Below are positions 17,894-33,268 of a DNA stretch of 64,000 nt, piece by piece (the first letter of the stretch is position 1; the number at the start of each line of letters is the position of its first letter). The notes beneath the pieces are model-generated. The model did no database searches. It saw only the letters and a program-made list of their open reading frames with translations, and was not told the DNA's origin. Both the position numbers and the translations under genes were made by a program. Source of the DNA: Escherichia phage SmurfNell; sequence record OR896824.1; one strand, given 5' to 3'.

Positions 17894-17901
17894 AAATTGA
17901 T

Positions 17902-17930: not shown

Positions 17931-17936
17931 AGATTC

Positions 17937-18864: not shown

Positions 18865-18890
18865 ATTTTATTAACTGCTAGGAAAATAAA

Positions 18891-19091
18891 GTGAAAACAC
18901 GATATATAGTAAAAGTAGTAGGTGAACATTCACAAGTAAATACCACCGATGTTACAGCGCTAGCATTTGAAGTAGTCTCCGGTATAGTCATATTTCATAA
19001 CGGAGATATCAAAGCTCCTGAATTTGCTGTGGATGCTAGCCTGTTTATTTCTGCAACTAAAGTAACTGTAGTAGCTAACCCTTCTAAATAA
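18891..19091 (+). CDS. hypothetical protein
   Basis: 66 aa ORF with GTG start directly upstream of the SPFH gene. Confidence 0.3.
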   Translation: MKTRYIVKVVGEHSQVNTTDVTALAFEVVSGIVIFHNGDIKAPEFAVDASLFISATKVTVVANPSK

Positions 19092-19102
19092 TAAGGAAAT
19101 AT

Positions 19103-20047: not shown

Positions 20048-20069
20048 TAGTTACACGTAATCTTCGAAC

Positions 20070-20106
20070 CAAGCCCGCGTTTCCTCCGAGAGCGCGGGCT
20101 TTTCTG
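20070..20106 (+). terminator. rho-independent terminator
   Basis: AAGCCCGCG...CGCGGGCTT hairpin followed by TTTCTG. Confidence 0.55.
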
Positions 20107-20259
20107 TATTTAAGGCAAAAGAAAAGCCCATAAGTTATTCAACTAAGGTCTTTAGTATTTAATTCTTTAATTCTTTAGAATCATATACTATTATTGTAGC
20201 AACAACGTGCTACCACTAAATGCCTTGAGATTTTTCCACTAAAAAGTTTAAAAATTCGA

Positions 20260-20288
20260 TTGCTTGAACGCTAAATTCTCTGTATAAT
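20260..20288 (+). promoter_or_regulatory. early promoter (TTGCTT-17-TATAAT)
   Basis: consensus hexamers plus ATAAATTTGAGAGAGG box. Confidence 0.6.
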
Positions 20289-20318
20289 ATATTTATAAAT
20301 TTGAGAGAGGAATCAAAT

Positions 20319-21374
20319 ATGATTAAGACTGGTCTAGTAATTGGTAAGTTCGCGCCATTAACGCGTGGTCATATTAACCTAATAAACACAGCAGCAACTA
20401 TGTGTGAACGAGTTATTGTTGTAGTTAGTCATGATAATCGTTGGCTGGATAAGCAGAACACACGTGATCAGGAAGTATTACAGTTAAAGAATCGACTTCG
20501 TTGGTTAGAACAAACTTACGCGGATATTGAGCACATTTCGGTAGAGTACATTATTGAAGATGATATTCCTGAATATCCGAATGGTTGGCCGGAATATGCT
20601 AGAATCCTTAATGAAAATTACGGACATTTGCCTGAGATCACCGTTTTCTCTAGCGAACTAGACTATGATGCAGAATATAAGAAATATCTGCCGAAGTTTG
20701 GTCATTATATTGTAGATTCTGATCGGACTCGTGTTCCAATCTCAGCTACAATGATTCGTAATGATCTTATGAAGTATTGGGAGTTTCTTCCTAGCGTAGT
20801 TCGTAAAGATTACGTGCGTAAGGTTGTAATCATTGGGACTGAAAGCTCGGGAAAGACTACTTTAACAAAATACCTTGCGAAGCTATACAACACTTCGTGG
20901 GTAGAAGAATATGGCCGAACGTATTGTGAAGTTGATCTAGTTGGTAACGAAAATCTACTTATCAGTGAAGATTACAGTAAAATTGCGTTCAGACACAAAG
21001 AGCTAGAGTTTGAGGCAGAACGTACTGCAAATAAGATCATGTTTGTAGACACAAATGCTTTTATTACTGAGTTCTACCACAGACTTTATGAACATCGTAA
21101 GAATCCTGTGGTTACAGCAATTGCAAAAGAAGAACATTACGATTTAGTAATTGTTCTAGCGCCTACTGTTAAGTGGGTAGATGATGGTTTACGTATTAAC
21201 TCCGATCGTTCAATTACTTCTGAACTGTTCGAGCAGATGAAGAAAGAATTTCCAAATCAGTTCCCTGAAGGGCGTACTGTTTACATCGACTCCCCGGACT
21301 ACAAAGTTCGTATGGACGAAGCAGTAAACGCAGTAGACTGGCTGATTCATCACTTTAACGTTGGAGAGTTTTAA
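20319..21374 (+). CDS. nadR: NadR-like bifunctional NMN adenylyltransferase / ribosylnicotinamide kinase
   Basis: N-terminal GKFAPLTRGHINLI (nucleotidyltransferase HxGH-type motif) and central Walker A IIGTESSGKTT; ATG at 20319. Confidence 0.65.
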   Translation: MIKTGLVIGKFAPLTRGHINLINTAATMCERVIVVVSHDNRWLDKQNTRDQEVLQLKNRLRWLEQTYADIEHISVEYIIEDDIPEYPNGWPEYARILNENYGHLPEITVFSSELDYDAEYKKYLPKFGHYIVDSDRTRVPISATMIRNDLMKYWEFLPSVVRKDYVRKVVIIGTESSGKTTLTKYLAKLYNTSWVEEYGRTYCEVDLVGNENLLISEDYSKIAFRHKELEFEAERTANKIMFVDTNAFITEFYHRLYEHRKNPVVTAIAKEEHYDLVIVLAPTVKWVDDGLRINSDRSITSELFEQMKKEFPNQFPEGRTVYIDSPDYKVRMDEAVNAVDWLIHHFNVGEF

Positions 21375-21375
21375 T

Positions 21376-22053
21376 ATGACTAACTATCTTGTAAATGACT
21401 TTAAAAACTGGAAACCTTTGGAATATCTGTGGCTGTTTATAGCAGTCGCCTTTATTAGTTTAGCAAACTATAATGGTACAGCTCTAGATTGGGCTACTGC
21501 AATAACCAATGTGGTTTGTGTTATTCTGGTTGCAAAAGGACGTGTTTCCAACTATATTTGGGGCTTAGTGGGTGTTCTTACATATGGTATTACAGCTTTA
21601 AACGCAGATCTTTATGGTAACGCTGCACTAAACCTGCTATACTACGTTCCTATGCAGTTTTATGGAATGTACTTATGGCATAAAAATAAGCCAAGTAATC
21701 TGCCAGATGTTCCAACTAAGTTTCTGACTAAAGCCCAAGCTCTGCTGACTCTAGGGATTCTAGCAGTAGCCACGTTAGGGTATGGTAGTTTCTTAGCTAC
21801 TACAGCTGATCCATTCCCAATGCTCGATGCATTTACTGCGGTTGGTAGTGTGATCGCTATGTGGCTTATGGTTAAGCAGTATGCCGAGCAGTGGCTGATC
21901 TGGATTGCTATTAACATTGGTACTGTGTACATTTGGCTTGTAACTGCTCAATCTACAGGTGCATCTTATGCAATCCTAGCAATGTGGCTAGTATTCTTAG
22001 GTAACTCTATTATGGGAGCCTATAAAGGATACTTTGTACGCGTTAACAAATAA
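21376..22053 (+). CDS. pnuC: nicotinamide riboside transporter PnuC-like
   Basis: About 225 aa polytopic membrane protein rich in Trp/Tyr, translationally coupled to the NadR-like gene. Confidence 0.55.
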   Translation: MTNYLVNDFKNWKPLEYLWLFIAVAFISLANYNGTALDWATAITNVVCVILVAKGRVSNYIWGLVGVLTYGITALNADLYGNAALNLLYYVPMQFYGMYLWHKNKPSNLPDVPTKFLTKAQALLTLGILAVATLGYGSFLATTADPFPMLDAFTAVGSVIAMWLMVKQYAEQWLIWIAINIGTVYIWLVTAQSTGASYAILAMWLVFLGNSIMGAYKGYFVRVNK

Positions 22054-22100
22054 AGTAGTTATAGCCCTCGCTTAGAGGGCTATTATACAGAAATTTTCAC

Positions 22101-22129
22101 TTGCTTAATATAGAAAATTTCTGTATAAT
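22101..22129 (+). promoter_or_regulatory. early promoter (TTGCTT-17-TATAAT)
   Basis: consensus hexamers plus ATAAATTCGAGAGAGG box. Confidence 0.6.
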
Positions 22130-22159
22130 ATATTTATAAATTCGAGAGAGGAATCAAAC

Positions 22160-22456
22160 ATGAAACGCATTGTACTTGCATTGACTCTAGTATCTACTTC
22201 TGTATTTGCTGCTCCGCAACAGGAACTTTGTCAAGTTCAGGTTTGTAATAAGCTAGAACGATTTACTCTAAACATTTGGTCCCATATTAAAGATAATATG
22301 GGTGAACAGTGTTTTGATATTGTTCTGCCAAAAGAACAGGCTATTCCTGGTGCTGTTCTTAGCTCAGAATCACGTTGGTGGCAGGGTTCTTCTATCAATC
22401 CAACTAAGAAGTCAGTGACACGTATCAAACAAGTATATCAGTGCAAGGTTCAGTAA
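22160..22456 (+). CDS. secreted/periplasmic hypothetical protein
   Basis: Signal peptide MKRIVLALTLVSTSVFA; several Cys. Confidence 0.5.
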   Translation: MKRIVLALTLVSTSVFAAPQQELCQVQVCNKLERFTLNIWSHIKDNMGEQCFDIVLPKEQAIPGAVLSSESRWWQGSSINPTKKSVTRIKQVYQCKVQ

Positions 22457-22464
22457 AATTTCAC

Positions 22465-22493
22465 TTGCTTAATGTCGAAATTTTCTGTATAAT
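22465..22493 (+). promoter_or_regulatory. early promoter driving a tRNA operon
   Basis: TTGCTT-17-TATAAT, 15 nt upstream of tRNA-Ser. Confidence 0.6.
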
Positions 22494-22507
22494 ATATTCA
22501 TAAATTC

Positions 22508-22601
22508 GGAAGATTAACCCTAATGGTAAGGGAGCTGTTTGCTAAACAGCCAGTAGCTGTGGAGACACGGTGTGCCAGTTCGAATCTGGCATCTTCCTCC
22601 A
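22508..22601 (+). tRNA. tRNA-Ser (anticodon GCU), class II
   Basis: Acceptor GGAAGAT/ATCTTCC, anticodon loop TTGCTAA, long variable arm, T-loop TTCGAAT, CCA. Confidence 0.7.
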
Positions 22602-22606
22602 GATTT

Positions 22607-22684
22607 GGTTCTCAAGCTCATTTGGTATGAGCCGTCGCCTCATAAGCGAAAGGTAGGTAGGTTCGAATCCTCCGGGAGCCACCA
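22607..22684 (+). tRNA. tRNA with CAU anticodon (Met, fMet or Ile2)
   Basis: Acceptor GGTTCTC/GGGAGCC, anticodon loop CTCATAA, T-loop TTCGAAT, CCA. Confidence 0.7.
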
Positions 22685-22701
22685 ATTAATTAGGAGACTA
22701 T

Positions 22702-22887
22702 ATGTCACGCTTTCGAGAAATTGCTCAAGAGCTAGAAGAATGTGCCTGCCCAAAATGCTTCGGAGCAGGTGAATGGAACGATGCTGAACCTGGTGATACA
22801 TGGTATAATACATACGTTTGTACACATTGTAATAGTTCTGGTATTAATCCTGAATGCGGTATTTCTCTAGATATTGAGCGAGGCTAA
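22702..22887 (+). CDS. zinc-ribbon small protein
   Basis: CACPKC...CTHCNSSG double Cys pairs. Confidence 0.45.
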   Translation: MSRFREIAQELEECACPKCFGAGEWNDAEPGDTWYNTYVCTHCNSSGINPECGISLDIERG

Positions 22888-23221
22888 GATGGATATCTAC
22901 ACTACACCAGCAGTAAACCTGATTGGCTCTTGCCTTGTGCATTTCCGCTTCTTCCAAACGGATGATAGCAAAGAGGAGTATACCTATCCTCTGATGGATT
23001 TTCAGATTGAGGACTTCTTCCGTGAAGTGCGTAATATCTCTGAGAACTTCTATTATGGCATGGATAAGGAAGACTTTGACATTAAGTTCCCTATAATCTC
23101 TCGTTATTTCCTAGAGCAGTCCGATGCTCGGTTTGAGAAGATTGAACACATGGAAGTAGCCTGGGCTATCCAGTTCGAAATTACTGGCTTTGCTCGATAC
23201 ATTCAAGGTTACGAACTATGA
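22874..23221 (+). CDS. hypothetical protein
   Basis: 115 aa ORF. Confidence 0.45.
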   Translation: MSEAKMDIYTTPAVNLIGSCLVHFRFFQTDDSKEEYTYPLMDFQIEDFFREVRNISENFYYGMDKEDFDIKFPIISRYFLEQSDARFEKIEHMEVAWAIQFEITGFARYIQGYEL

Positions 23222-23313
23222 AATTAAAAGATTATTATATTGGTTGGTTTGTAGGACTAATAGTAGGATTTTCACTGGGCTACAACTTGTATCAACTGAT
23301 AAACTGATTACAT

Positions 23314-23390
23314 GGGGGTGTAATCGAATTGGCATAGGTACTGGACTTAAAATTCAGGTTTTGTGGGTTCGAATCCCACCACCCCTACCA
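23314..23390 (+). tRNA. tRNA with UAA anticodon (Leu-type), class I architecture
   Basis: Acceptor GGGGGTG/CACCCCT (G1-U72), anticodon loop CTTAAAA, 5 nt variable loop, T-loop TTCGAAT, A73, CCA. Confidence 0.55.
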
Positions 23391-23542
23391 AATTAAGGAA
23401 ATAAAAATGAAAGCTATTAAGAAAGCACTACGTAAATTTATGTACTGTCGTTTTCATAGCATCAAGTCTTCGACTAATGGTACGACTTATGATCGCTATG
23501 ATCCTAAGTTTGGCTTACATTCTAAATAACTGGAGAAAACAA

Positions 23543-23749
23543 ATGGCTAATCCTGAAATTACAGCACAACGCTTTATGCTGAAAGGAATTATTGCTGAAG
23601 CAGGCATGACAGAAGAAGTTGCAGATTTTCAAAAGCAATTCCTCAATATTCTCACTCAAGCCAAAGAGCTAGGAGAGAAAGAACATGACGCAGCTGTTAT
23701 GGCAATCACGTTGGTTGGGCTTGATCTGGCAGAAGAATCAGGAGTTTAA
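23543..23749 (+). CDS. hypothetical protein
   Basis: ATG at 23543 with GGAGAAAA RBS, inside track ORF 23477..23749. Confidence 0.45.
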   Translation: MANPEITAQRFMLKGIIAEAGMTEEVADFQKQFLNILTQAKELGEKEHDAAVMAITLVGLDLAEESGV

Positions 23750-23779
23750 CTCCTCCAAGCAGAAATTTTAAAAATGTAC

Positions 23780-23809
23780 TTGCTTTTTACTTAAGATTTC
23801 TGCTATAAT
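23780..23809 (+). promoter_or_regulatory. early promoter (TTGCTT-18-TATAAT)
   Basis: consensus hexamers plus ATAAATTGATGAAGGAG box. Confidence 0.55.
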
Positions 23810-23839
23810 AGTTATATAAATTGATGAAGGAGTTAACGA

Positions 23840-24115
23840 ATGTCAAAACGTGTTACTGCAACTGGTGTTGAAAGTGCTGTTTGTAAATCCTGGGGTGGCT
23901 GGGAAGGTGAGATTGAATGGCTTTATTTCTACGACGTAGAACTTCTGCCGGAAGTCAAAGCTAAATGTGTGGAAGCCGGTATGGCTCCTGATGCAAAGGC
24001 TGATATCGAAATCACCATGCCTAAGCTAGAAGGTCGTGTAATTACGCTCAATGATGATTATGAAGAAGTGTTCGAGCTTCCCTTCAAACTGAGTGTCACT
24101 CCTAGCTTCGAGTAA
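23840..24115 (+). CDS. hypothetical protein
   Basis: 91 aa ORF. Confidence 0.5.
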   Translation: MSKRVTATGVESAVCKSWGGWEGEIEWLYFYDVELLPEVKAKCVEAGMAPDAKADIEITMPKLEGRVITLNDDYEEVFELPFKLSVTPSFE

Positions 24116-24151
24116 CTGATATAGCACTGAGCAAGTTCTTTAAAATTTGAC

Positions 24152-24180
24152 TTGCTCAGTCCTTCAAATCTTGATATAAT
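24152..24180 (+). promoter_or_regulatory. early promoter driving a tRNA operon
   Basis: TTGCTC-17-TATAAT upstream of tRNA-Tyr. Confidence 0.55.
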
Positions 24181-24243
24181 AGTTATCTAATTTGGAAACA
24201 TATTTAAAAGTGTTTAAACTAGTATTTGAATATTTCTAAATAT

Positions 24244-24334
24244 GTTGGATTAGTATCGTAGAGGTAGCGAAGCAGACTGTAAATCTGCCGACTCGGAAGG
24301 GTCTCGGGTGGTTCGACTCCATCATCCAACACCA
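24244..24334 (+). tRNA. tRNA-Tyr (anticodon GUA), class II
   Basis: Acceptor GTTGGAT/ATCCAAC, anticodon loop CTGTAAA, long variable arm, T-loop TTCGACT, CCA. Confidence 0.7.
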
Positions 24335-24341
24335 AATTTAA

Positions 24342-24418
24342 GTCCTGTTAGACAAACTGGTAAAGTCACTACCCTTTCAAGGTAGGATTTGCGGGTTCGA
24401 TCCCCGCACAGGACGCCA
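24342..24418 (+). tRNA. tRNA-Glu (anticodon UUC)
   Basis: Acceptor GTCCTGT/ACAGGAC, anticodon loop CTTTCAA, T-loop TTCGATC, CCA. Confidence 0.75.
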
Positions 24419-24425
24419 ATTTCTG

Positions 24426-24503
24426 CATTCCTAGAGTGTTACTGGACAGCATGTCGGTCTCCAAAACCGTACGGTCTAGGTTCGAGTCCTAGTAGGTTTG
24501 CCA
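24426..24503 (+). tRNA. tRNA-like element, possible tRNA-Trp (anticodon CCA); acceptor stem unresolved
   Basis: T-arm CTAGG-TTCGAGT-CCTAG and encoded CCA at 24501-24503; candidate anticodon loop CTCCAAA; no canonical 5' acceptor strand found by eye. Confidence 0.3.
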
Positions 24504-24509
24504 ATATTT

Positions 24510-24584
24510 GCGACTTTAGCTGAGATGGATTAGCGTCTCCCTGAAAAGGAGAAGAGGTACGATCGTTACGTACAGGTTGCACCA
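24510..24584 (+). tRNA. tRNA-Phe (anticodon GAA) with atypical T-loop
   Basis: Acceptor GCGACTT/AGGTTGC, anticodon loop CTGAAAA, T-arm GTACG-ATCGTTA-CGTAC, CCA. Confidence 0.6.
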
Positions 24585-24595
24585 ATTTGAAGGAG

Positions 24596-24874
24596 ATGCT
24601 GATGCATCCTGAAAACTTCTTTATTTACTGTGCGGATAAGTCATTAAAACGCAGAATTAACAAAGTCTACCATTATCGTGCTAGTCAACAGCCTTATGTT
24701 TATGCTTTTGATGGAGAAACCATTCCACTAAAGCAGTTGGCATGTGATTACATGGTCTTGAAGAACTTTGATGAGACAAAGATCTCAAGCGTTCATAATC
24801 GACAGAATCCATTAACGTGGAAGTATAAGAAGAAAAAGAAAGGCATCAAATTTCTGAAAAATGTAGTTGCTTAA
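24596..24874 (+). CDS. hypothetical protein
   Basis: ATG at 24596 after GAAGGAG RBS, 12 nt after the tRNA-Phe CCA. Confidence 0.5.
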   Translation: MLMHPENFFIYCADKSLKRRINKVYHYRASQQPYVYAFDGETIPLKQLACDYMVLKNFDETKISSVHNRQNPLTWKYKKKKKGIKFLKNVVA

Positions 24875-24895
24875 ATCCTTAAAGTTCTGTATAAT
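24867..24895 (+). promoter_or_regulatory. early promoter (TTGCTT-17-TATAAT)
   Basis: consensus hexamers plus ATAAATTGAACTGGAGAAG box. Confidence 0.55.
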
Positions 24896-24924
24896 TATTA
24901 CATAAATTGAACTGGAGAAGCAAC

Positions 24925-25149
24925 ATGACAGAACAAGAATTAAAAGAACGTAAGCTGGTAATGCTTCGCTTACTAAACATTTTCTCTGGTATGGATGGTG
25001 GTATTGACTTCGTTCAACTACGCACTTTTGTAGAAGAAGCTGAAGGCGAATCTATTACTAAAATCCTTAAACATATGGGTTTATTACTAGACGCTGCTAA
25101 TGTAGCTACTGAATATAAATTAGAAGATCTACCGGAGCGTGTTTCATGA
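24925..25149 (+). CDS. hypothetical protein
   Basis: ATG at 24925 (track start 24907 is TTG). Confidence 0.45.
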   Translation: MTEQELKERKLVMLRLLNIFSGMDGGIDFVQLRTFVEEAEGESITKILKHMGLLLDAANVATEYKLEDLPERVS

Positions 25150-25337
25150 AAATGTTAGTTAAATTTAAGTGTTGTGGTTCTGAACATATTTTCACTCGTT
25201 ATAGAGAGTTTAAGATGTGTGAGTGTGGTAAGTCAGGCTATGATGCTGGAGATGGCTATTATGCTAGATCTATAGGACATTCTAAAGATCTAGAGTTTAC
25301 TAATCTCGAAAAGCAAGATAAATCGACCGTTGGCTGA
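25146..25337 (+). CDS. zinc-ribbon small protein
   Basis: CCGSEH...CECGKSGYD Cys pairs; 3' end overlaps the tRNA-Cys 5' end. Confidence 0.4.
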   Translation: MKMLVKFKCCGSEHIFTRYREFKMCECGKSGYDAGDGYYARSIGHSKDLEFTNLEKQDKSTVG

Positions 25338-25399
25338 ATGGCTTAGGCGGAGGCCTGCAAAACCTCCTTATGTGAGTTCGAATCTCATGCGGTCGTCCA
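25324..25399 (+). tRNA. tRNA-Cys (anticodon GCA)
   Basis: Acceptor CGACCGT/GCGGTCG, anticodon loop CTGCAAA, U73, T-loop TTCGAAT, CCA. Confidence 0.6.
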
Positions 25400-25406
25400 A
25401 ATTTTA

Positions 25407-25489
25407 GGGTCGTTAGCCAAGCGGTTTGGCGGTGGACTGTTAATCCATGTCGAAAGACAACGTAGGTTCGAATCCTACACGGCCCGCCA
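25407..25489 (+). tRNA. class II-type tRNA carrying a GUU (Asn-type) anticodon
   Basis: Acceptor GGGTCGT/ACGGCCC, anticodon arm GTGGA-CTGTTAA-TCCAT, 13 nt variable arm, G73, T-loop TTCGAAT, CCA. Confidence 0.55.
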
Positions 25490-25591
25490 TATTCTGTGTA
25501 GAGTTAAGTAAACCGGTAGCCAACCAGCTATCATTACTGATATTGAATTCAGTCACAGATACCATTTTCATTAATAACTGAGGAAATAGAT

Positions 25592-25777
25592 ATGACAACT
25601 CGTGCAATTGCTCGACTAGAAGCTGATCGTGATAGTCTGATTAATAATATTAAGGTTTGGGATCAAGAAATTGAAAACCAAAAACTGACATTAATTCAAG
25701 ATATGCAGCAACAGAATGCCCGTCGTGAAGCTCTAAAAGAGGTTGAGGAAGCTATCGAAAAACTCAAAACTGAGTAA
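25592..25777 (+). CDS. hypothetical coiled-coil protein
   Basis: 61 aa ORF with GAGGAAA RBS. Confidence 0.45.
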   Translation: MTTRAIARLEADRDSLINNIKVWDQEIENQKLTLIQDMQQQNARREALKEVEEAIEKLKTE

Positions 25778-25786
25778 ATAAATTAT

Positions 25787-25863
25787 GCGATCGGGGCTGG
25801 CTTGGTAATGGTACTCCCCTGTCACGGGAGAAAATGTGGGTTCGAATCCCATCGGTCGCGCCA
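25787..25863 (+). tRNA. tRNA-Asp (anticodon GUC)
   Basis: Acceptor GCGATCG/CGGTCGC, anticodon loop CTGTCAC, T-loop TTCGAAT, CCA. Confidence 0.75.
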
Positions 25864-25939
25864 ATTTTTGCAGGACGCTGGTATAGATAACCACCGCGTG
25901 GGAAGTGTCTATATTTAGAGCACTGCAAAACATAATAAT

Positions 25940-26015
25940 ACATCCATAGCTCAATGGTTAGAGCTACCGCCTCTTAAGCGGAGGGTTCTAGGTTCAAGTC
26001 CTAGTGGGTGTACCA
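25940..26015 (+). tRNA. tRNA-Lys (anticodon CUU)
   Basis: Acceptor ACATCCA/TGGGTGT, D-arm GCTC..GAGC, anticodon loop CTCTTAA, T-loop TTCAAGT, CCA. Confidence 0.6.
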
Positions 26016-26228
26016 AACATCAGAGTAGCGTGATGTACTGCAAAGACCCAAAGTCCGGGGTGGACTTCTTGATTCAAAGGAGCAGGCATTAATTATCATT
26101 CTAGCGTGGTGGAGAGGGGACACCAGCTTGCCGAGGGTAGAAGCTCGTTCGATTCGAGTGAAAGAATGGTTCTCGTAAATCCGCACAAGTGATAGCAGGT
26201 TCAAGTCCTGCCTAGATTGACTTATTAT

Positions 26229-26302
26229 GCGTTCGTAGTTAAAAGGTATAATTTTTGGTTGCCAACCAGAAGTTGAGGGTTCGATTCCCTCCGACCGCAC
26301 CA
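26229..26302 (+). tRNA. tRNA-Gly (anticodon GCC)
   Basis: Acceptor GCGTTCG/CGACCGC (one mismatch), anticodon loop TTGCCAA, T-loop TTCGATT, CCA. Confidence 0.65.
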
Positions 26303-26550
26303 AATTTAGGTTTCTGCTTCCTAGAGAACTGACGCCTAGATAAACAAGGCGATGAGTTTCCGGCCGGTTCTAGTCGCTGAAAATCCTCCCGACCAGGTAG
26401 GTGTAAGTAAACGAAAGTTTACTTATTAAGTAAGTCCGACACATCGGCGGGTGTGTTCTAGTACTTAAAGAAGGTCTCGCAAACTTTCTCGCTAGCATGA
26501 GTTGATAGCTCGGTGACTTACCTAATAAGTAAATTTATTAAAAAATGTAG

Positions 26551-26579
26551 TTGCTATTTAGCTTAATTCTCTGTATAAT
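26551..26579 (+). promoter_or_regulatory. early promoter driving a tRNA operon
   Basis: TTGCTA-17-TATAAT upstream of tRNA-Pro. Confidence 0.55.
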
Positions 26580-26611
26580 ATATTTTATAAAGTGAGTTAA
26601 CAAAGAATATT

Positions 26612-26689
26612 CTCCGTGTAGCTCAGTTTGGCCAGAGCGTTTCGTTTGGGGCGATAGGGTCGGGGGTTCAAATCCTCCCACGGAGACCA
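26612..26689 (+). tRNA. tRNA-Pro (anticodon UGG)
   Basis: Acceptor CTCCGTG/CACGGAG, D-arm GCTC..GAGC, anticodon loop TTTGGGG, T-loop TTCAAAT, CCA. Confidence 0.75.
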
Positions 26690-26695
26690 AACAAT

Positions 26696-26773
26696 TGCGG
26701 GTTAGATCTCTGGTAGAGATCGCTAGTCTCATAAGCTAGAAAGAGGTAGGTTCGATTCCTGCACCCGCTTCCA
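26696..26773 (+). tRNA. tRNA with CAU anticodon (second copy; initiator-like 1-72 mismatch)
   Basis: Acceptor TGCGGGT/ACCCGCT with U1xU72 mismatch, anticodon loop CTCATAA, T-loop TTCGATT, CCA. Confidence 0.65.
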
Positions 26774-26794
26774 ATTTAATAGAAGGATTTCTAA

Positions 26795-26959
26795 ATGAAA
26801 TTGTTTCGTTTAAAAGTAAGTGATATACGTTCTAGTAAAGATCGTAAGAAGTATCCACTAGCTCACTACGGTAAAGATGAAAACGAAGTGATGGCGGAAT
26901 TTGGTATTAATCATCCTTACTTGAAAATATACTCTATCAAAGAAGTATACATGTATTAA
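26795..26959 (+). CDS. small hypothetical protein (54 aa)
   Basis: ORF with AAGGA RBS between two tRNAs, below the track cutoff. Confidence 0.35.
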   Translation: MKLFRLKVSDIRSSKDRKKYPLAHYGKDENEVMAEFGINHPYLKIYSIKEVYMY

Positions 26960-26961
26960 AT

Positions 26962-27040
26962 AGATCGCTAGCTCAATTGGTTTAGCAGCACCCGGCTTTT
27001 AACCGGAAGGTTCTGGGTTCGAGTCCCAGGCGGTCTACCA
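26962..27040 (+). tRNA. tRNA-Lys (anticodon UUU)
   Basis: Acceptor AGATCGC/GCGGTCT, anticodon arm CCGG-CTTTTAA-CCGG, T-loop TTCGAGT, CCA. Confidence 0.75.
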
Positions 27041-27057
27041 ATTTAAAGGAATTTGTT

Positions 27058-27375
27058 ATGAATATTAACAAAGTTCTAGAAACAATATCAGAAATGTCTG
27101 GTAGAGCTGGAAAACGCTTTACTGAACTATGTATTAAAAATCAAAAAATACCAGAACATCAATGTCATTATTGTCGAGACTGTGAACAATACCATGAAAT
27201 GTGTGTGGTTGAAGATTGGATCTGGGATCAGATAAGAAAAGAACAATCCAAAGATATTGTTCTATGTTTTACTTGTATGGAACGACGTTTAGGACGTAAA
27301 ATTACTCTTAAAGATCTTAAACATGTTCCCTGTAACGCTCCTTACTTCATTGGTTTTAGAATGGAGAGATTTTGA
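27058..27375 (+). CDS. Cys-rich zinc-binding protein
   Basis: CHYCRDCEQYHEMC and CFTC motifs. Confidence 0.5.
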   Translation: MNINKVLETISEMSGRAGKRFTELCIKNQKIPEHQCHYCRDCEQYHEMCVVEDWIWDQIRKEQSKDIVLCFTCMERRLGRKITLKDLKHVPCNAPYFIGFRMERF

Positions 27376-27518
27376 TGATAATCTGGTTTTACTTAATGAA
27401 ACAAAAAGTCAAGCAGTACAACGTATTTTCTGCTGATTTTACTATTGGAATGTTCTTAGCAGGATTATGTGAGTTTCTGTTTGAAGCATTCTTAATCGGA
27501 AGTCTTTTGCTCGGTTAG
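27375..27518 (+). CDS. small membrane peptide (47 aa)
   Basis: Hydrophobic ORF overlapping the previous stop, below the track cutoff. Confidence 0.3.
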   Translation: MIIWFYLMKQKVKQYNVFSADFTIGMFLAGLCEFLFEAFLIGSLLLG

Positions 27519-27582
27519 TTTAATGGGAGAACCCCGTCTTTACACGGCGGTTGCGATAGTTCGATTCTATCACCGAGTACCA
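27509..27582 (+). tRNA. tRNA-Val (anticodon UAC)
   Basis: Acceptor GCTCGGT/ACCGAGT, anticodon arm CCGTC-TTTACAC-GGCGG, T-loop TTCGATT, CCA. Confidence 0.65.
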
Positions 27583-27601
27583 ATTAACTCAAAATAAGGA
27601 A

Positions 27602-27961
27602 TTGCAAATGCAATTATCAAGCAAGGTTCAAGGCTACTTCGGTCATGTAACAATGGAGTTCGCTATCTCTAAAGGTTGGGACTTCGAACAAGATTTAGCT
27701 GAGTTCTACAAAGATATTGATCTGAACGTACCGTACATGGGACTCTCTACTGGTCAGGAAATCACAGAAGCCGATGTATTCAAGGCAAGTCAAGGTGAGA
27801 TAACACCTAGTTTTGCCGAGTTCTGGTTAGGAATTACTCTGAAAGATGATGCACCGGATGGTGGTGTGGTTATGCAGAGTATGCACTCTGGAAGCTCTGA
27901 TTACCTTTTCGTTAGCGACGTTAAGGAAATACAAGAAATCTGCAAAAATGTACTTGCTTGA
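27602..27961 (+). CDS. hypothetical protein
   Basis: 119 aa acidic ORF. Confidence 0.5.
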   Translation: MQMQLSSKVQGYFGHVTMEFAISKGWDFEQDLAEFYKDIDLNVPYMGLSTGQEITEADVFKASQGEITPSFAEFWLGITLKDDAPDGGVVMQSMHSGSSDYLFVSDVKEIQEICKNVLA

Positions 27962-27982
27962 TACTTAATTTCTTGTTATAAT
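27954..27982 (+). promoter_or_regulatory. early promoter driving a structured leader and tRNA operon
   Basis: TTGCTT-17-TATAAT; transcript would start with the TTGATGAGGAGAAATCCTCATCAA hairpin. Confidence 0.55.
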
Positions 27983-28018
27983 ATTTATATAAATTGATGA
28001 GGAGAAATCCTCATCAAA

Positions 28019-28244
28019 GTTCACTAAGGTATTAGCTCGACCTAGGACTGGCTGCCAAAAAGCACGGTTGCAATTAGACCCCTAATGGCGGGGGATACTT
28101 TGCAAGAAGTTCTAGATTAGTCCACTAGATTCAGCGGCAACTGAATAGTGTATCGGGTTTGTGAAGAGCGGTTATCCTCTACTGGCTAATGTCTGAGGGT
28201 AATACGCACGCCGAGCTAATAGCCTTAGTAAACTTAAAGATTTT
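28019..28244 (+). other. non-coding leader between promoter and tRNA-Ala (possible small RNA)
   Basis: About 225 nt without an ORF, GC-balanced unlike the AT-rich spacers. Confidence 0.25.
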
Positions 28245-28318
28245 GGGGATATAGTTTAATGGTAGAACATCTGCTTTGCACGCAGAAGACGAGGGTTCAA
28301 CTCCCCCTTTCTCCACCA
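28245..28318 (+). tRNA. tRNA-Ala (anticodon UGC)
   Basis: Acceptor GGGGATA/TTTCTCC with G3-U70, anticodon arm TCTGC-TTTGCAC-GCAGA, T-loop TTCAACT, CCA. Confidence 0.6.
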
Positions 28319-28324
28319 AAATTT

Positions 28325-28400
28325 GGGGTCATAGGTTATTTGGTTAAACTTACTGCCTTGCAAGCAGTGGAACTCAGTTCAATTCTGAGTGACTCCACCA
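28325..28400 (+). tRNA. tRNA-Ala-like second copy (anticodon UGC)
   Basis: Acceptor GGGGTCA/TGACTCC with G3-U70, anticodon arm ACTGC-CTTGCAA-GCAGT, T-loop TTCAATT, CCA. Confidence 0.5.
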
Positions 28401-28413
28401 AATTAGAGGAAGC

Positions 28414-28875
28414 ATGGCTAGAACAGATATATTGGAAAGAAAGGATGAAATTCTTCTCTGGATAGAAGAAAATCAACCCAAAGCTGAAATTGCTAGAAGA
28501 TTACGCTGCAAAGTTGATACACTGAATACTTATCTGAAAAAGATGGGAATACAATATTCAGGTAACTCTGCTAGAAAAGGTTTTATACGTTCTGAGATAC
28601 AGGATGGGTATATTCCGGCAGTGAATTACTTTTACAAAAATAGCCCAATATCTTCTAGTCAGCTTAGAATAAAGATACTACGTGATGGCTTAAAACCTCA
28701 CAAATGTGAAAATTGTAATTTATCTGAATGGATGGGAGTTCCAATCCCCTTAGAGTTAGAGCATAAAGATGGTGATCATTATAATAATGAGTGGGATAAT
28801 TTAGCTTTATTATGTCCCAACTGTCATACACTAACAGATACACATTCAGGTAAGAATAAAGGAACATACGCGTGA
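28414..28875 (+). CDS. HNH endonuclease with N-terminal HTH, inserted in the tRNA island
   Basis: C-terminal HKCENCN...EHKDGDHYNNEWDNLALLCPNCH HNH motif. Confidence 0.75.
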   Translation: MARTDILERKDEILLWIEENQPKAEIARRLRCKVDTLNTYLKKMGIQYSGNSARKGFIRSEIQDGYIPAVNYFYKNSPISSSQLRIKILRDGLKPHKCENCNLSEWMGVPIPLELEHKDGDHYNNEWDNLALLCPNCHTLTDTHSGKNKGTYA

Positions 28876-28946
28876 TTGATGGAATTGGCATACATACCGT
28901 CCTTAGAAGTCGGGTTTTGAGGGTTCGAATCCCTTGTCACGCACCA
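28870..28946 (+). tRNA. tRNA with UAG anticodon (Leu-type), class I architecture
   Basis: Acceptor GCGTGAT/GTCACGC, anticodon loop CTTAGAA, 5 nt variable loop, A73, CCA; scaffold resembles the tRNA at 23314; 5' end overlaps the HNH stop. Confidence 0.5.
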
Positions 28947-28963
28947 ATTTTGTAGTAAACAAC

Positions 28964-29063
28964 GGAAGAGCAAATCGATAGGTGACGAAAACCGCTTGGA
29001 AAGTGGCTGACTTGTGAAAGCAGGCTTGAGAGTTCGAATCTCTCTTCTTCCGCCAAACAATAG
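28964..29063 (+). tRNA. tRNA-like element, about 100 nt, fold unresolved
   Basis: Complementary termini GGAAGAG/TTCTTCC, T-arm GAGAG-TTCGAAT-CTCTC, G73, CCA; too long for a standard tRNA. Confidence 0.3.
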
Positions 29064-29069
29064 AAGATA

Positions 29070-29151
29070 GGACGTAGTGGTACGTAACCGGTCTTGAAAA
29101 CCGGCCCGCTGTAGTGATACGGTGATGGTTCGACTCCATTATCTTCTGCCA
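29070..29151 (+). tRNA. tRNA-Ser (anticodon UGA), class II
   Basis: Acceptor AGAAGAT/ATCTTCT, anticodon arm CCGGT-CTTGAAA-ACCGG, long variable arm, G73, CCA. Confidence 0.7.
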
Positions 29152-29466
29152 AATCTTGAAGTATGCCGGAATCGGTAGACGGGGCTTCCTAAAGGGCGTA
29201 AGAGGAACATCCACTCCTCATAAGATACCCGAAAACGAGGCTGAGATAAATGGTCTATCTCGTGAAGGTTCAAGTCCTTCTGCTTCTTGATATTCAATGG
29301 CTCAAAGAGTAACGGTGCACCTTTCTAGAGAATTTTCTGGGCGAGAATCCAGAAGTAATCAACTAGTTGTTAGTGTGATGAGTTTCGGAGAGCCGCCACA
29401 ATTGAAGTCTTTAGAATGGGTATCGCCCTTTAGCCCCTCCGAAAGGGATAACTAGAGATTTCAATT

Positions 29467-29543
29467 GTGGCTATATCATAATTGGTTAATGATCCTGATT
29501 GTGAATCAGGCCTATGTGGATTCGAATTCCACTAGCCACCCCA
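29467..29543 (+). tRNA. tRNA-His (anticodon GUG)
   Basis: Acceptor GTGGCTA/TAGCCAC, anticodon arm CCTGA-TTGTGAA-TCAGG, C73, CCA. Confidence 0.75.
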
Positions 29544-29549
29544 AATATT

Positions 29550-29624
29550 GCGTCCTTATTTCAATGGAAAGAATGTAAAGCTACGAACTTTACGATCGGG
29601 GTTCGATTCCCTGAGGATGCACCA
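29550..29624 (+). tRNA. tRNA-Arg (anticodon ACG)
   Basis: Acceptor GCGTCCT/AGGATGC, anticodon arm GTAAAG-CTACGAA-CTTTAC, A73, CCA. Confidence 0.75.
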
Positions 29625-29648
29625 ATTAACTTATATAGGAAATAAAAT

Positions 29649-29849
29649 ATGGCTGATTTCTGCAAAGAATGCTCTATCGATATGTGGGGCAAAGATACTG
29701 GTGATCTTTCTGGTCTGATTACAGAAGCCGAAGTTAAAGAAGGCTATGGTGCTGTTGTAATCTGTGAAGGTTGTGGTATTATTCGTGTTGATCATAATGG
29801 TAAACGTCTAGAAGAACCAGATCCAATTGCCACGGTTCCTGTAGAATAA
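29649..29849 (+). CDS. zinc-ribbon small protein
   Basis: CKEC...CEGCG motifs. Confidence 0.45.
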   Translation: MADFCKECSIDMWGKDTGDLSGLITEAEVKEGYGAVVICEGCGIIRVDHNGKRLEEPDPIATVPVE

Positions 29850-29856
29850 AAATTAT

Positions 29857-29932
29857 TGGGATGTAGATCAATTGGCAGATCGTCGGCCTCTGACTCCGAA
29901 GGTTCCACGTTCGATCCGTGGCATCCCAGCCA
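29857..29932 (+). tRNA. tRNA-Gln (anticodon CUG)
   Basis: Acceptor TGGGATG/CATCCCA with U1-A72 and G73, anticodon loop CTCTGAC, CCA. Confidence 0.65.
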
Positions 29933-29938
29933 AATACT

Positions 29939-30014
29939 TGGAGAGTAGTGTAACGGTTAGCACAACGGCCTTTGACTCCGTTAATGGTAGGTTCGATTCC
30001 TCCTTCTCCAGCCA
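29939..30014 (+). tRNA. tRNA-Gln (anticodon UUG)
   Basis: Acceptor TGGAGAG/TTCTCCA with U1-A72 and G73, anticodon loop CTTTGAC, CCA. Confidence 0.65.
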
Positions 30015-30020
30015 ATTTAT

Positions 30021-30095
30021 GCGTGATTAGTTCAGTGGCTAGAATAACTGGCTTCCAACCAGTAGACACGAGTTCGACTCTCGTATCCCGCACCA
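30021..30095 (+). tRNA. tRNA-Gly (anticodon UCC)
   Basis: Acceptor GCGTGAT/ATCCCGC, anticodon arm CTGG-CTTCCAA-CCAG, T-loop TTCGACT, CCA. Confidence 0.7.
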
Positions 30096-30111
30096 AATAT
30101 AAGAAAACGTT

Positions 30112-30333
30112 ATGGACGTTTTTGAGTTTCGTAATAAAAACCCTAGTAGACGAGTTTTAATTATTGGTGAAACATATCGAGCTTATGAGCAAGAAGATGG
30201 TTCGGTTTTATTAAATGATGAAAAGCAAGGCTATAGTTTTCATCCAGAAGAAACATATGAGGAATTTCGTACTAAGTTTCTTTTACCAGACTGGCTAGCA
30301 ATAGCTGAGCAAAGAGAACCCGAAGATGGCTGA
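30112..30333 (+). CDS. hypothetical protein
   Basis: 73 aa ORF. Confidence 0.45.
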   Translation: MDVFEFRNKNPSRRVLIIGETYRAYEQEDGSVLLNDEKQGYSFHPEETYEEFRTKFLLPDWLAIAEQREPEDG

Positions 30334-30488
30334 TAATCTAAAGCTAAAGGTAGATAAACAAATGAAGTGCGTTGAGGTTGAGTTGGGTGAAGAACGTTTA
30401 AAACTCTCCTTCGAATTCTTACAACAGTTGGCTATGACAGTAATGTCTGATAAGTCTCCTGTATTTGAAAAAGAAATTCCGTTGAAAT
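30321..30488 (+). CDS. small hypothetical protein (55 aa)
   Basis: ORF overlapping the previous stop, below the track cutoff. Confidence 0.3.
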
Positions 30489-30500
30489 AACGGGTTTATT

Positions 30501-30575
30501 GCTCCTAAAGCATTGCTGGCGATGCAGTTGCCTTGTAAGCATCTGAACCGGGTTCGATTCCTGGTGGGAGCACCA
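30501..30575 (+). tRNA. tRNA-Thr (anticodon UGU)
   Basis: Acceptor GCTCCTA/TGGGAGC, D-arm GCAT..ATGC, anticodon loop CTTGTAA, T-loop TTCGATT, CCA. Confidence 0.7.
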
Positions 30576-30590
30576 AATTTAAAAATTCAT

Positions 30591-30620
30591 TTGCCTTCTC
30601 TCTTATTTCTTGTTATAATA
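30591..30620 (+). promoter_or_regulatory. early promoter (TTGCCT-18-TATAAT)
   Basis: consensus hexamers plus ATAAATTAATGAGAGGG box. Confidence 0.55.
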
Positions 30621-30649
30621 TTTATATAAATTAATGAGAGGGAAACCAA

Positions 30650-30943
30650 ATGAAACGTTATCTTTCTGTCGTGTTCCAAACTGGTGGTCAACGCTACACT
30701 TATGAATTTCCTGAGTCCTGGAAAATTAAAGAAGGTGATCAAGTTGTTGTATTAACACCTCGTGAAGGCTTCAAAGTAGTAACGGTTAAACAAGTATTTC
30801 CAAAAGATCACGAACCATCTAAGTCTATTCAGTACAAGATGATTCATGGTCTAGTTCGTAAAGTACCACGAACTGAGGTAGAAGTAGATAAGACTGGTGA
30901 AGCTAAATACCAGTATACTTCTTACTTAGATGAAATGATGTAA
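30650..30943 (+). CDS. hypothetical protein
   Basis: 97 aa ORF. Confidence 0.5.
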   Translation: MKRYLSVVFQTGGQRYTYEFPESWKIKEGDQVVVLTPREGFKVVTVKQVFPKDHEPSKSIQYKMIHGLVRKVPRTEVEVDKTGEAKYQYTSYLDEMM

Positions 30944-30944
30944 T

Positions 30945-31020
30945 GCTCTGATAGTTCAACAGGTTAGAACAGGCGACCGATAATCGTCAAATCTTGGTTC
31001 GATCCCAAGTCGGAGTACCA
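30945..31020 (+). tRNA. tRNA-Ile (anticodon GAU)
   Basis: Acceptor GCTCTGA/TCGGAGT, D-arm GTTC..GAAC, anticodon arm GGCGA-CCGATAA-TCGTC, T-loop TTCGATC, CCA. Confidence 0.65.
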
Positions 31021-31026
31021 AATTAT

Positions 31027-31099
31027 AGTTAGTTGGCAGAGCGGTTATGCACCTCCTTCATACGGAGCGACTACAGTGGTTCAAATCCACTACTAACTA
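31027..31099 (+). tRNA. tRNA with CAU anticodon (third copy), no encoded CCA
   Basis: Perfect acceptor AGTTAGT/ACTAACT, anticodon loop TTCATAC, T-arm AGTGG-TTCAAAT-CCACT; followed by ACTA rather than CCA. Confidence 0.45.
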
Positions 31100-31470
31100 C
31101 TAAACAGAGGATCAGGTAATTGTACCAGATCCTGCTGAGAAGAGAGTCCACATTCTATAAATGGCCGGGCGTGACAGCAGGAAGTAGACTGCAACTCCAT
31201 GCTATCCAGGAGTATAAATGTAGAAGCTAAGACTTTAGATAGCCATTGTCTTAGCGTGAGCAATCACGTAGTTGCAACAGACCTGGAAGATCGCAACGTT
31301 AAAATCAAAGTTCCAGTGCTTATTTATCTAATCGAGACCATCAATCTCACCGGAATGCTAGCACCCCAACAGTAGCTAGTGATTAGATAATAAGCAAGCC
31401 TGCCTTCCAGTTTTTATCTTGCTTCTGGGTTAACAAAAAGCTGAGCCAAATTCTAACATCAGGGAGATCT
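31100..31470 (+). other. structured non-coding region downstream of the tRNA island
   Basis: 370 nt without an ORF of 60 aa or more; higher GC than flanks; hairpins such as GGATCAGG...CCAGATCC. Confidence 0.25.
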
Positions 31471-31471
31471 A

Positions 31472-31840
31472 ATGAAAGCATATCAAAGTCTTAAGTCTGG
31501 CGTAATTAACATTGTTCATAACAATCAGATCATTCAACTATACTCTAAAGATGGTGAACTTAAACAGAAAGTTCTAGTTGAAGATCTAGAAGGTATCACA
31601 CCTCACTTTGACCCTGAGGCCTTTCGCATTGTAGATGTGGAAGTGGTTCCCCAAGTCGAGGGTGGTCAGCACCTAAATGTCAATGTGTTAAGCCGTGATC
31701 AGCTTTTGGATGCGCAGAAACATCCTGAAAAATATCCTCAGTTGACCATCCGTGTCTCTGGCTATGCTGTTCGATTTAACGCATTGACGCGTGAACAACA
31801 GAACGACGTTATTAGTCGTACATTTACTCAGGCGATATAA
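31472..31840 (+). CDS. grcA: autonomous glycyl radical cofactor (GrcA/YfiD-like)
   Basis: C-terminal [12 protein letters not shown]...[21 protein letters not shown] is nearly identical in pattern to the E. coli GrcA glycyl-radical domain (from memory). Confidence 0.8.
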
Positions 31841-32995: not shown

Positions 32996-33268
32996 ATGAA
33001 AGAAGCAGAAATTAATGAAATGGCTAGAATATTCATCGTTTCCTATATGCAAGGCAGTTGCAATAGTTTATTCGAGTCTGCTATAGTATTTCAGGAAATG
33101 TTAGCCGAGAAAGGCGTACATATGGAAGATACTGAAATTGAAGATCTTCTAATGGAAACTTGTAGTAGTGCTGAAGTCTTCCAGTGTGGTAACTGTAATT
33201 GGTGGTGTCCAGAGCATGATCGTTCTGAAGAAGGTTCCTACTGTTCCGATTGTGAAGGAGAAGAATAA
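32996..33268 (+). CDS. acidic Cys-rich protein
   Basis: CGNCNWWC...CSDC motifs. Confidence 0.45.
   Translation: MKEAEINEMARIFIVSYMQGSCNSLFESAIVFQEMLAEKGVHMEDTEIEDLLMETCSSAEVFQCGNCNWWCPEHDRSEEGSYCSDCEGEE

Follow-up and report, generated by a model that had tools for sequence, protein, structure and literature searches.

The stretch of DNA analyzed here, in the following called the window, comprises 64,000 nucleotides (nt) from Escherichia phage SmurfNell (sequence record OR896824.1), a T5-like phage (Demerecviridae, Epseptimavirus); a 2-kb query around the locus of interest was 97-98% identical to Salmonella and Escherichia T5-like phages. ARAGORN, applied to the whole window, found 30 transfer RNA (tRNA) genes within 18790-31100, which are all located on the + strand and together serve 20 of the 20 amino acids; 28 of them were confirmed by the Rfam tRNA model, which also returned one extra weak tRNA-like match. 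Three of the genes carry the anticodon CAU, and the last one, tRNA #3, is followed by a structured RNA element lying upstream of a gene for a GrcA-like glycyl-radical protein (Table 1). The comparison with relatives shows that this element belongs to a conserved family of multi-domain, + strand RNAs with predicted pseudoknots, which resides in the tRNA arrays of several enterobacterial Demerecviridae genera.

Table 1. Features of the RNA element, the CAU tRNA genes and their surroundings. Positions refer to the window unless loci of relatives are named; RBS, ribosome-binding site.
Feature	Position	Strand	Basis or remark
Whole structured RNA element	31103..31404	+	covariation; homologues in other genera; no Rfam match
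P0, 5' hairpin (GGAUCAGGU / ACCAGAUCC)	31109..31132	+	inner pair U-A replaced by C-G in TrudiGerster, S124, SB13; RNAalifold
A1, short hairpin CCA...UGG, tentative	31148..31164	+	read from the sequences
P2 5' strand (GGCCGGGC), long-range helix, tentative	31163..31170	+	paired with 31398-31404 by RNAalifold
Module A hairpin GCAG-GAAGUAGA-CUGC	31177..31192	+	100% paired in 11 sequences; A-U replaced by G-C in S124
Module B, two kissing hairpins (GCUAUC 31201-31206 with GAUAGC 31238-31243)	31194..31255	+	covariation
GNRA-capped hairpin GUGA-GCAA-UCAC	31256..31267	+	loop class kept
Module C, H-type pseudoknot: S1 GUUGC/GCAAC, S2 CUGGAA/UUCCAG, A-rich loop 3 GUUAAAAUCAAAG	31271..31316	+	
Domain D, 15-bp closing helix P1 (31318-31333 / 31381-31395) around hairpins a and b	31318..31395	+	
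Hairpin a, loop CCAUCAA	31334-31348	+	AUCAA invariant, stem covaries
Hairpin b, within P1	31357-31380	+	
Conserved CAAGCCUG motif, including the proposed P2 3' strand GCCUGCC	31395..31404	+	follows P1 in all types
Trailer, doubling as 5' leader and RBS for the following gene	31405..31471	+	common to the SB13 short form
tRNA(CAU) #1, tRNA-Ile2 (lysidine-type) homologue	22607..22684	+	CCA encoded; ARAGORN, Rfam, synteny, determinants
tRNA(CAU) #2, initiator (fMet) type	26696..26773	+	CCA encoded; T5 tRNAfM homologue
tRNA-Ile(GAU), upstream partner of tRNA #3, 6-nt spacer	30945..31020	+	ARAGORN
tRNA(CAU) #3, elongator tRNA-Met	31027..31099	+	no CCA encoded; Rfam 49.9 bits; 99% identical to T5 tRNAM
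CUA at the CCA position of tRNA #3 (C-to-T at position 75)	31100..31102	+	comparison with relatives
Promoter-like site	30591..30619	+	10/12 match with TG extension; positional counterpart of T5 promoter P11
GrcA-like glycyl-radical protein gene	31472..31840	+	name from the annotation of relatives
T5 RNAX homologue	18131-18789		
T5 RNA3 homologue	25492-25564		
T5 RNA2 homologue	26097-26221		
T5 RNAIV homologue	26435-26486		
T5 RNA2H homologue	28030-28164		
T5 RNA1 homologue	29155-29298		
Variants of the slot between tRNA-Met and the GrcA-like gene in loci of relatives	L025 585-785; L043 5711-6001; L042 5962-6001; L017 150-765		

The first-pass annotation of the window, made from the letters alone, had described 31100-31470 as a GC-richer, structured non-coding region of about 370 nt that is free of open reading frames (ORFs). 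The stretch is indeed mildly GC-richer (43-44% versus 39.9% for the window) and the structured RNA is real, but its core covers only about 300 nt (31103-31404) and ORFs of 36 and 58 amino acids are present. A coding reading of these ORFs (31120-31230 and 31199-31375) was considered and rejected, because the homologous frame varies between 6, 20, 42, 43, 58 and 76 codons and is broken in relatives, by a frameshift in phage S113 and by early stops in DU_PP_V and KKP_3831. The small hypothetical proteins annotated at this stretch in several database records are thus contradicted by the comparative data. Behind the core, only the RBS-proximal 30-40 nt or so of the trailer are also found in relatives without the element.

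The model of the fold distributes 72 pairs over 12 helices, which amount to 11 structural elements since an alignment gap splits one of them, and was evaluated with 11 sequences from Epseptimavirus and Tequintavirus, using partners slid by 1-3 columns and 500 shuffles as controls. In the model 94.7% of the cells are paired, compared with 29-39% when the partners are slid. Compensatory changes were found in 15 pairs as opposed to at most 2 in the slid and 7.3 +/- 1.8 in the shuffled controls (0 of 500 shuffles reached 15); since most of the sequences are closely related, the shuffle control overstates the significance and the slid control is the fairer one. Helix P1, which is predicted to close a three-way junction in domain D, carries compensatory changes in 8 of its 15 pairs with 97% of the cells paired, among phages that are about 90% identical. 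A helix of differing sequence occupies the P1 position in 14 of 14 sequences, and about half of these helices beat at least 98.7% of their shuffles. In module B, 95.3% of the cells are paired among seven distinct sequences (29-40% when slid) and both partners have changed in five pairs, of which two belong to the loop-loop helix (CUAUC/GAUAG versus CCGUC/GACGG). Similarly, two pairs of pseudoknot stem S2 show compensatory changes in 5 of the 11 sequences, where CUGGAA/UUCCAG alternates with CAGGAG/CUCCUG, and Boggle (UCCCCAA/UUGGGGA) and Kamaji (CCCUAGA/UCUAGGG) form the same stem with wholly different letters; covariation across genera is also seen for pseudoknot stem S1 and for the stem of hairpin a. 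From the alignment alone, RNAalifold recovered P0, the module A hairpin, both module B hairpins, the GNRA hairpin, S2 and P1. Several helices contain G-U pairs that would become A-C mismatches on the other strand, hence the element is read on the + strand like the tRNAs. The analysis had to proceed module by module, because MAFFT misaligned long and short forms in alignments of the whole family. A covariance model built from the pseudoknot and hairpin a located a single copy in the window, at 31268-31352 (78.7 bits, E 6e-15); the relatives all scored 55-85 bits.

Some parts of the fold are less firmly placed. At the position of A1, different stems are found in SelmaRatti (ACGGU/ACCGU), the KKP phages (AACCUU/AAGGUU) and EK80 (ACCU/AGGU). 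The long-range helix P2 is a tentative proposal of RNAalifold, which would explain the conservation of the CAAGCCUG motif; however, the duplex energies of GGCCGGGC with GCCUGCC were no better than those of shuffles. RNAalifold also proposed an invariant outer helix of 31134-31146 with about 31419-31431, in which zero covariation was observed. The GNRA hairpin, on the other hand, keeps its loop class while its sequence drifts: close relatives have GCAA, GUAA or GCGA, the loop of DU_PP_V is GAGA, and the stem is another one in KKP_3831 and DU_PP_V. The block containing module A is common to the window and Serratia phage Kamaji.

A query of 381 bases starting at 31095 matched 368 phage records, of which 150 cover at least 80% of its length. 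Short blocks furthermore match unannotated gaps in the tRNA arrays of Klebsiella phage AmPh_EK80 (Sugarlandvirus), Pectobacterium phage DU_PP_V (Hongcheonvirus) and Serratia phage Kamaji, and the element is also carried by My1, KKP_3831, KKP_3711, Boggle and Kpn13-P2. Its length is about 290 nt in the window and reaches about 570 nt in the longest versions, those of EK80 and DU_PP_V. The versions have in common a hairpin loop C(U/C)AUCAA, an A-rich GUUAAAA-CAAA segment and the CAAGCCUG motif, and mostly also a GUAGAAGCUAGGNCUUUAGA block. The element is independent of the neighboring tRNA #3, as judged from its position in relatives: a coding sequence (CDS) separates the two in S113, SelmaRatti lacks this tRNA but has the element, and the members from other genera have it behind tRNA-Thr, tRNA-Val or a CDS. 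In the Sugarlandvirus element a copy resembling the T5 stable RNA called RNA1 is inserted at the GNRA hairpin (AmPh_EK80, locus L002, 1575-1691), and this insertion site fits the GNRA hairpin as a peripheral loop. The covariance model gave no match in T5 or in the tRNA region of Vibrio phage pVp-1. Among 185,579 bacterial and archaeal genomes only five chance matches turned up, a metagenome scan gave one real match on an EK80-like contig and four others judged to be chance (two of these in coding sequence), and pattern scans of IMG/VR returned isolate genomes only. The long forms have additional neighbors: in AmPh_EK80 two unannotated tRNA-like genes (locus L002, 1210-1278 and 1283-1355) lie just upstream of the element, one of which scores 39.7 bits with the Rfam tRNA model, and in DU_PP_V an unannotated ORF of about 52 amino acids with coiled-coil-like character (locus L003, about 1105-1262) is situated between tRNA-Thr and the element.

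The turnover of the element among close relatives counts against the explanation favored below. The 34 T5-like loci used for this comparison were fetched via the GrcA-like gene, and only 6 of them contain the element; module C is missing from 27. It is missing in T5, where tRNA-Met is found 13 nt from the GrcA-like gene, while the short form in phage SB13 has kept just P0 and domain D and looks like the product of a deletion between two TCCTG repeats. Because it is missing from T5 and many other loci and is shortened in SB13, the element must be regarded as accessory, dispensable and often lost. Five states of the slot behind tRNA-Met and before the GrcA-like gene are found: empty (T5), with a small CDS (locus L043), with the short RNA (SB13), with the full RNA (window), or with CDS and RNA (S113). 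Moreover, two 5' modules of the long form are shared by DU_PP_V (locus L003, 1255-1500) and My1 (locus L022, 900-1130) in reversed order, pointing to module shuffling within the family. These features, together with the small hypothetical proteins annotated there in some records, might indicate that the region is functionless debris, which small genes, decayed tRNA genes or recombination events have left behind in a hypervariable slot. Such debris would not be expected to accumulate compensatory double substitutions like those on both sides of 8 of the 15 P1 pairs at about 90% identity, nor to rebuild kissing loops and pseudoknot stems from different sequence, and the ORFs in the element are broken in relatives, so that we regard this explanation as very unlikely. 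Where the element is kept, compensation maintains its helices.

The element does not correspond to a catalogued RNA. A search of Rfam 15 (4227 models) at E <= 10 with the element of the window and three distant relatives gave no family, but only tRNA and chance matches; ARAGORN found no tmRNA (transfer-messenger RNA) in the window, and neither RNase P RNA nor tmRNA gave an Rfam match. Resemblances to RNase P (UGCAACAGA), the B12 box (CCUGCC), tmRNA and T-box leaders consisted of short strings without support from models and were dropped. The tRNA region of T5 contains eight annotated stable RNAs with 'unknown functions' (RNAI, RNAIII, RNAIV, RNA1, RNA2, RNA2H, RNA3 and RNAX), six of which have homologues in the window (Table 1), while RNAI and RNAIII gave no window match at E < 1e-4. 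The element was also considered as a homologue of one of these RNAs and rejected, since BLAST and the covariance model found nothing. Like the T5 stable RNAs, it is non-coding, is interspersed with tRNA genes in this family of phages and would be co-transcribed with them, but it is larger, pseudoknotted rather than tRNA-like, and not homologous. GOLLD and ROOL are large, ornate, pseudoknotted RNAs encoded by phages and prophages, often near tRNA islands, whose function is unknown and which form nanocages according to cryo-electron microscopy (PMC12286853). One GOLLD is located downstream of a tRNA-Met, and the 3' part of GOLLD is conserved whereas its 5' part is variable, sometimes with tRNAs in the linker (PMC12286853). 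The element shares with them the phage origin, the vicinity of a tRNA island, multiple predicted pseudoknots, and a conserved 3' domain combined with variable 5' modules. In contrast, neither the window element nor the three distant relatives match the GOLLD or ROOL covariance model at E <= 10, and the element is smaller (290-570 nt) and found in lytic enterobacterial phages. The common setting, extending to tRNA-like inserts (PMC12286853), could suggest that the element is a very divergent member of GOLLD, ROOL, tmRNA, RNase P RNA, the cobalamin or T-box leaders, or the T5 stable RNAs. Given the Rfam result, the missing tmRNA call and the blank searches of the annotated T5 RNAs, this possibility is extremely improbable, and the T5 stable RNAs and GOLLD/ROOL are best seen as its nearest analogues. 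In the literature on T5 stable RNAs, Demerecviridae non-coding RNA and Epseptimavirus RNA sequencing, no description of the element was found.

The genomic context raises the question whether the element serves the gene behind it. The promoter-like site at 30591-30619 would drive the ORF 30650-30943, tRNA-Ile, tRNA-Met, the element and the GrcA-like gene. Between the element and the GrcA-like gene (31100-31470 scanned) no terminator and only a weak promoter-like match were found, hence in the window the element is physically part of the 5' untranslated region (UTR) of the GrcA-like mRNA, which speaks against its independence. It could consequently act in cis, as a riboswitch or as a structure shielding the mRNA fragment after the excision of tRNA-Met, and this is the main rival of an independent RNA. 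The local layout fits: the element is directly upstream of the GrcA-like gene in the window and close relatives, P0 begins 9 nt after the tRNA, and the T5 operon starting from P11 extends through the tRNAs into the GrcA-like gene. The layout in other genera, however, does not fit. In Sugarlandvirus, Hongcheonvirus, My1, the KKP phages and Kamaji, a GC hairpin forms the end of the homologous RNA, and behind this hairpin most other genera have a strong T5-type promoter and genes that are unrelated; the element is therefore not tied to one downstream gene, and the same downstream gene across members, as it is expected for riboswitches and cis-leaders, was not found. No riboswitch family was matched even at E <= 10, and the same gene is expressed in T5 and many relatives although they lack the element. 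On this basis, a cis-acting role for the GrcA-like gene is considered unlikely. A conserved downstream protein partner was rejected as well, because the proteins of 89-90 amino acids encoded behind the element in EK80 and DU_PP_V are dissimilar to one another and to the window ORF 32996-33268, the sole window ORF that was compared.

Regarding the tRNAs, CAU genes had initially been noticed at 22607, 26696 and 31027, and ARAGORN calls all three of them (22607-22684, 26696-26773 and 31027-31100). Their scores with the Rfam tRNA model (RF00005) are 40.0, 43.6 and 49.9 bits, respectively, at a gathering score of 29, and thus the third one also folds under automated tools. The first-pass annotation had suggested that the set might correspond to elongator Met, initiator and Ile2 tRNAs. 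This composition matches the annotation of T5 (AY543070, the record of the Ksenzenko laboratory), but the order, if one was meant, is reversed at the ends, and tRNA #3 cannot be maintained as Ile2. In T5, tRNAI2 is found beside tRNAS3(GCU), tRNAfM beside tRNAP(UGG) and tRNAM beside tRNAI1(GAU); the three window genes have the same neighbors and are 86%, 100% and 99% identical to these counterparts, with the differences that the window tRNAM has CUA for CCA and that the gap to the GrcA-like gene is about 370 nt instead of 13 nt. Specifically, tRNA #1 lies 5 nt downstream of tRNA-Ser(GCU), parallel to T5 tRNAI2(CAU) after tRNAS3(GCU), while tRNA #2 is 6 nt downstream of tRNA-Pro as is T5 tRNAfM, which is annotated as 'initiator tRNA fMet'. 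The Met, Ile and formylase identity elements were taken as tabulated in PMC9976931 (Met determinants in its Table 1). The Ile determinants U12-A23, C29-G41, A37, A38 and A73 are present in tRNA #1. In tRNA #2 the proposed U1xU72 mismatch is borne out by the sequence, which starts with UGCGGGU and ends with ACCCGCU-U-CCA; this 1-72 mismatch and A11:U24 are the formylase marks, and G2-C71 and C3-G70 are found as well. The acceptor stem of tRNA #3 (AGUUAGU/ACUAACU) provides all Met determinants (U4-A69, A5-U68, A73), whereas the Ile determinants C4-G69, U12-A23, C29-G41 and A38 are replaced by U4-A69, A12-U23, U29-A41 and C38. Synteny, identity to T5 and determinants together show that tRNA #1 is of the Ile2 type, tRNA #2 of the initiator type and tRNA #3 an elongator tRNA-Met, which is the standard set of the family. 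Some features disagree with this assignment. The Ile determinant C4-G69 is replaced by U4-A69 in tRNA #1. The E. coli tRNAfMet has three consecutive G-C pairs (29-41, 30-40, 31-39) and A73, while the anticodon stem of tRNA #2 (CUAGU/GCUAG) forms A29-U41, G30-C40 and U31-G39 and its discriminator is U. In addition, the Ile2 and Met assignments rest on database annotation combined with identity rules. Vibrio phage pVp-1 (locus L070, 37974-41871) likewise has three CAU tRNAs, one of which starts 1 nt after tRNA-Ile(GAU); because this relative has the trio and the Ile(GAU)-Met(CAU) pair, which is also kept in T5, the CAU trio is old in the family. The host TilS would be expected to convert tRNA #1 for the reading of AUA, and since AUA makes up 11% of the Ile codons in the long ORFs of the window, the phage benefits from an Ile2 tRNA.

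The encoded CCA is followed by A(A/T)T in 29 of the 30 tRNA genes, according to a script run on all 30. The sole exception is tRNA #3 (...ACUAACU-A73-CUA-AACAG), in line with its having been singled out at first sight as the only one lacking CCA. Among the relatives, ACUAACUA-CCA is found in about 27 genomes, including T5, TrudiGerster, S113, SB13, OSYSP, S124 and STG2, while ACUAACUA-CUA occurs in the window and in Sw2, NBEco002, SH9, LVR16A and SE20, i.e. in 5 of about 32 related genomes. The CUA therefore represents a derived one-base variant of a sub-lineage, in which the remainder of the tRNA gene is intact. The distinct 3' processing that had been suggested as possible for the third tRNA is plausible, but it concerns a single C-to-T change, and most relatives including T5 encode CCA. 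The supply of the 3' end by the host has a precedent in phage T4, where a tRNA without encoded CCA is completed in this way. The present case resembles the CCA-less tRNA genes of T4 and many bacteria in that the CCA of a phage tRNA would be supplied by the host, and differs from them in being a one-base variant of a normally CCA-encoding gene in one sub-lineage. All E. coli tRNA genes encode CCA and RNase BN/Z cleaves CCA-less precursors (PMC2777011). Enterobacteria retain this nuclease and the CCA-adding enzyme despite their CCA-encoding tRNA genes (PMC2777011). The CUA in place of CCA leads us to infer that tRNA #3 is probably matured by host trimming and CCA repair: host nucleases, either RNase BN/Z or exonucleases, would trim its 3' end, which the CCA-adding enzyme of the host would then complete.

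Alternatively, the change from CCA to CUA might inactivate tRNA #3, which would then be dying in this lineage, because the host tRNA-Met makes the gene dispensable. The variant is derived and restricted to a minority (the window and 5 of about 32 other genomes), and elongator tRNA-Met is, as generally known, abundant in the host. Yet the gene is otherwise intact and 99% identical to its T5 counterpart, trimming to C74 would leave just C75 and A76 to be added, and the enterobacterial CCA-adding enzyme and RNase BN/Z can handle CCA-less precursors (PMC2777011). A dying tRNA #3 is hence rather improbable, somewhat more so than a cis role of the element.

Taken together, the locus is best explained by a standard trio of CAU tRNAs, of which the CUA variant is repaired by the host, and by a separate stable RNA acting on its own; we consider this joint explanation the probable one, albeit by no means certain. 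The element would be transcribed together with the tRNAs from the promoter around 30600, its 5' end would be freed upon excision of tRNA-Met, and it would then persist as a compact stable RNA that acts independently of the neighboring gene. A caveat to this scheme is that the stability of the element, its ends and any action in trans are inferred. Its location among tRNAs and the hairpin resembling an anticodon loop (7-nt loop C-U/C-AUC-A-A) led us to propose a target in tRNA or translation biology, which is speculative, as is a possible role as decoy or sponge that captures a processing factor or a tRNA-directed nuclease of the host. A bolder proposal, toward which we lean less than toward its opposite but which appears more plausible than any of the competing explanations above, is that the element founds a new class of ornate phage RNA that folds by itself, a T5-like counterpart of GOLLD and ROOL that resides in tRNA arrays and acts in trans on the tRNA or translation machinery. 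As such it might be a decoy for tRNA-cleaving defense nucleases or bind tRNA-Ile via the invariant AUC-A loop.

The tRNA part of these results is routine, since the assignments follow T5, from which they were already known, and a change of one base accounts for the missing CCA. The element, in contrast, is a real, previously uncatalogued family of structured RNAs. GOLLD, ROOL and the T5 stable RNAs beside phage tRNA islands still lack a known function, and the element adds an unrelated family with clear covariation to them. Its carriers are easily grown and edited phages infecting E. coli, Salmonella and Klebsiella, and because natural full, truncated and null variants exist, the question of its function is directly testable by comparison or deletion. 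If it indeed represented a new RNA class, these E. coli and Salmonella phages would provide the first genetically tractable system for the function of tRNA-island RNAs.

Finally, some observations concern the remainder of the tRNA array. Twelve pairs of tRNA genes are spaced by 5-8 nt, and A(A/T)T follows every encoded CCA in 18790-31020; the uniform trinucleotide and the tight spacing suggest a shared processing signal. Two tRNA-Ser genes (28964-29055 and 29062-29151) were called by ARAGORN but are below the gathering score of the Rfam tRNA model. The homologue of T5 RNA1, annotated there as 'tRNA-like stable RNA', is located between tRNA-Ser(UGA) and tRNA-His. An ORF-poor stretch of about 850 nt (17940-18789) lies behind its own strong promoter (17890-17935) and leads into tRNA-Arg(UCU); this stretch shows partial homology to T5 RNAX (719 nt) and contains a weak tRNA-like match at 18186-18257 (29.3 bits). 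In tRNA-Ile(GAU), the near-universal U33 is replaced by C33 (anticodon loop CCGAUAA), which is common to the homologues in Klebsiella phages, while SB13 has U33.

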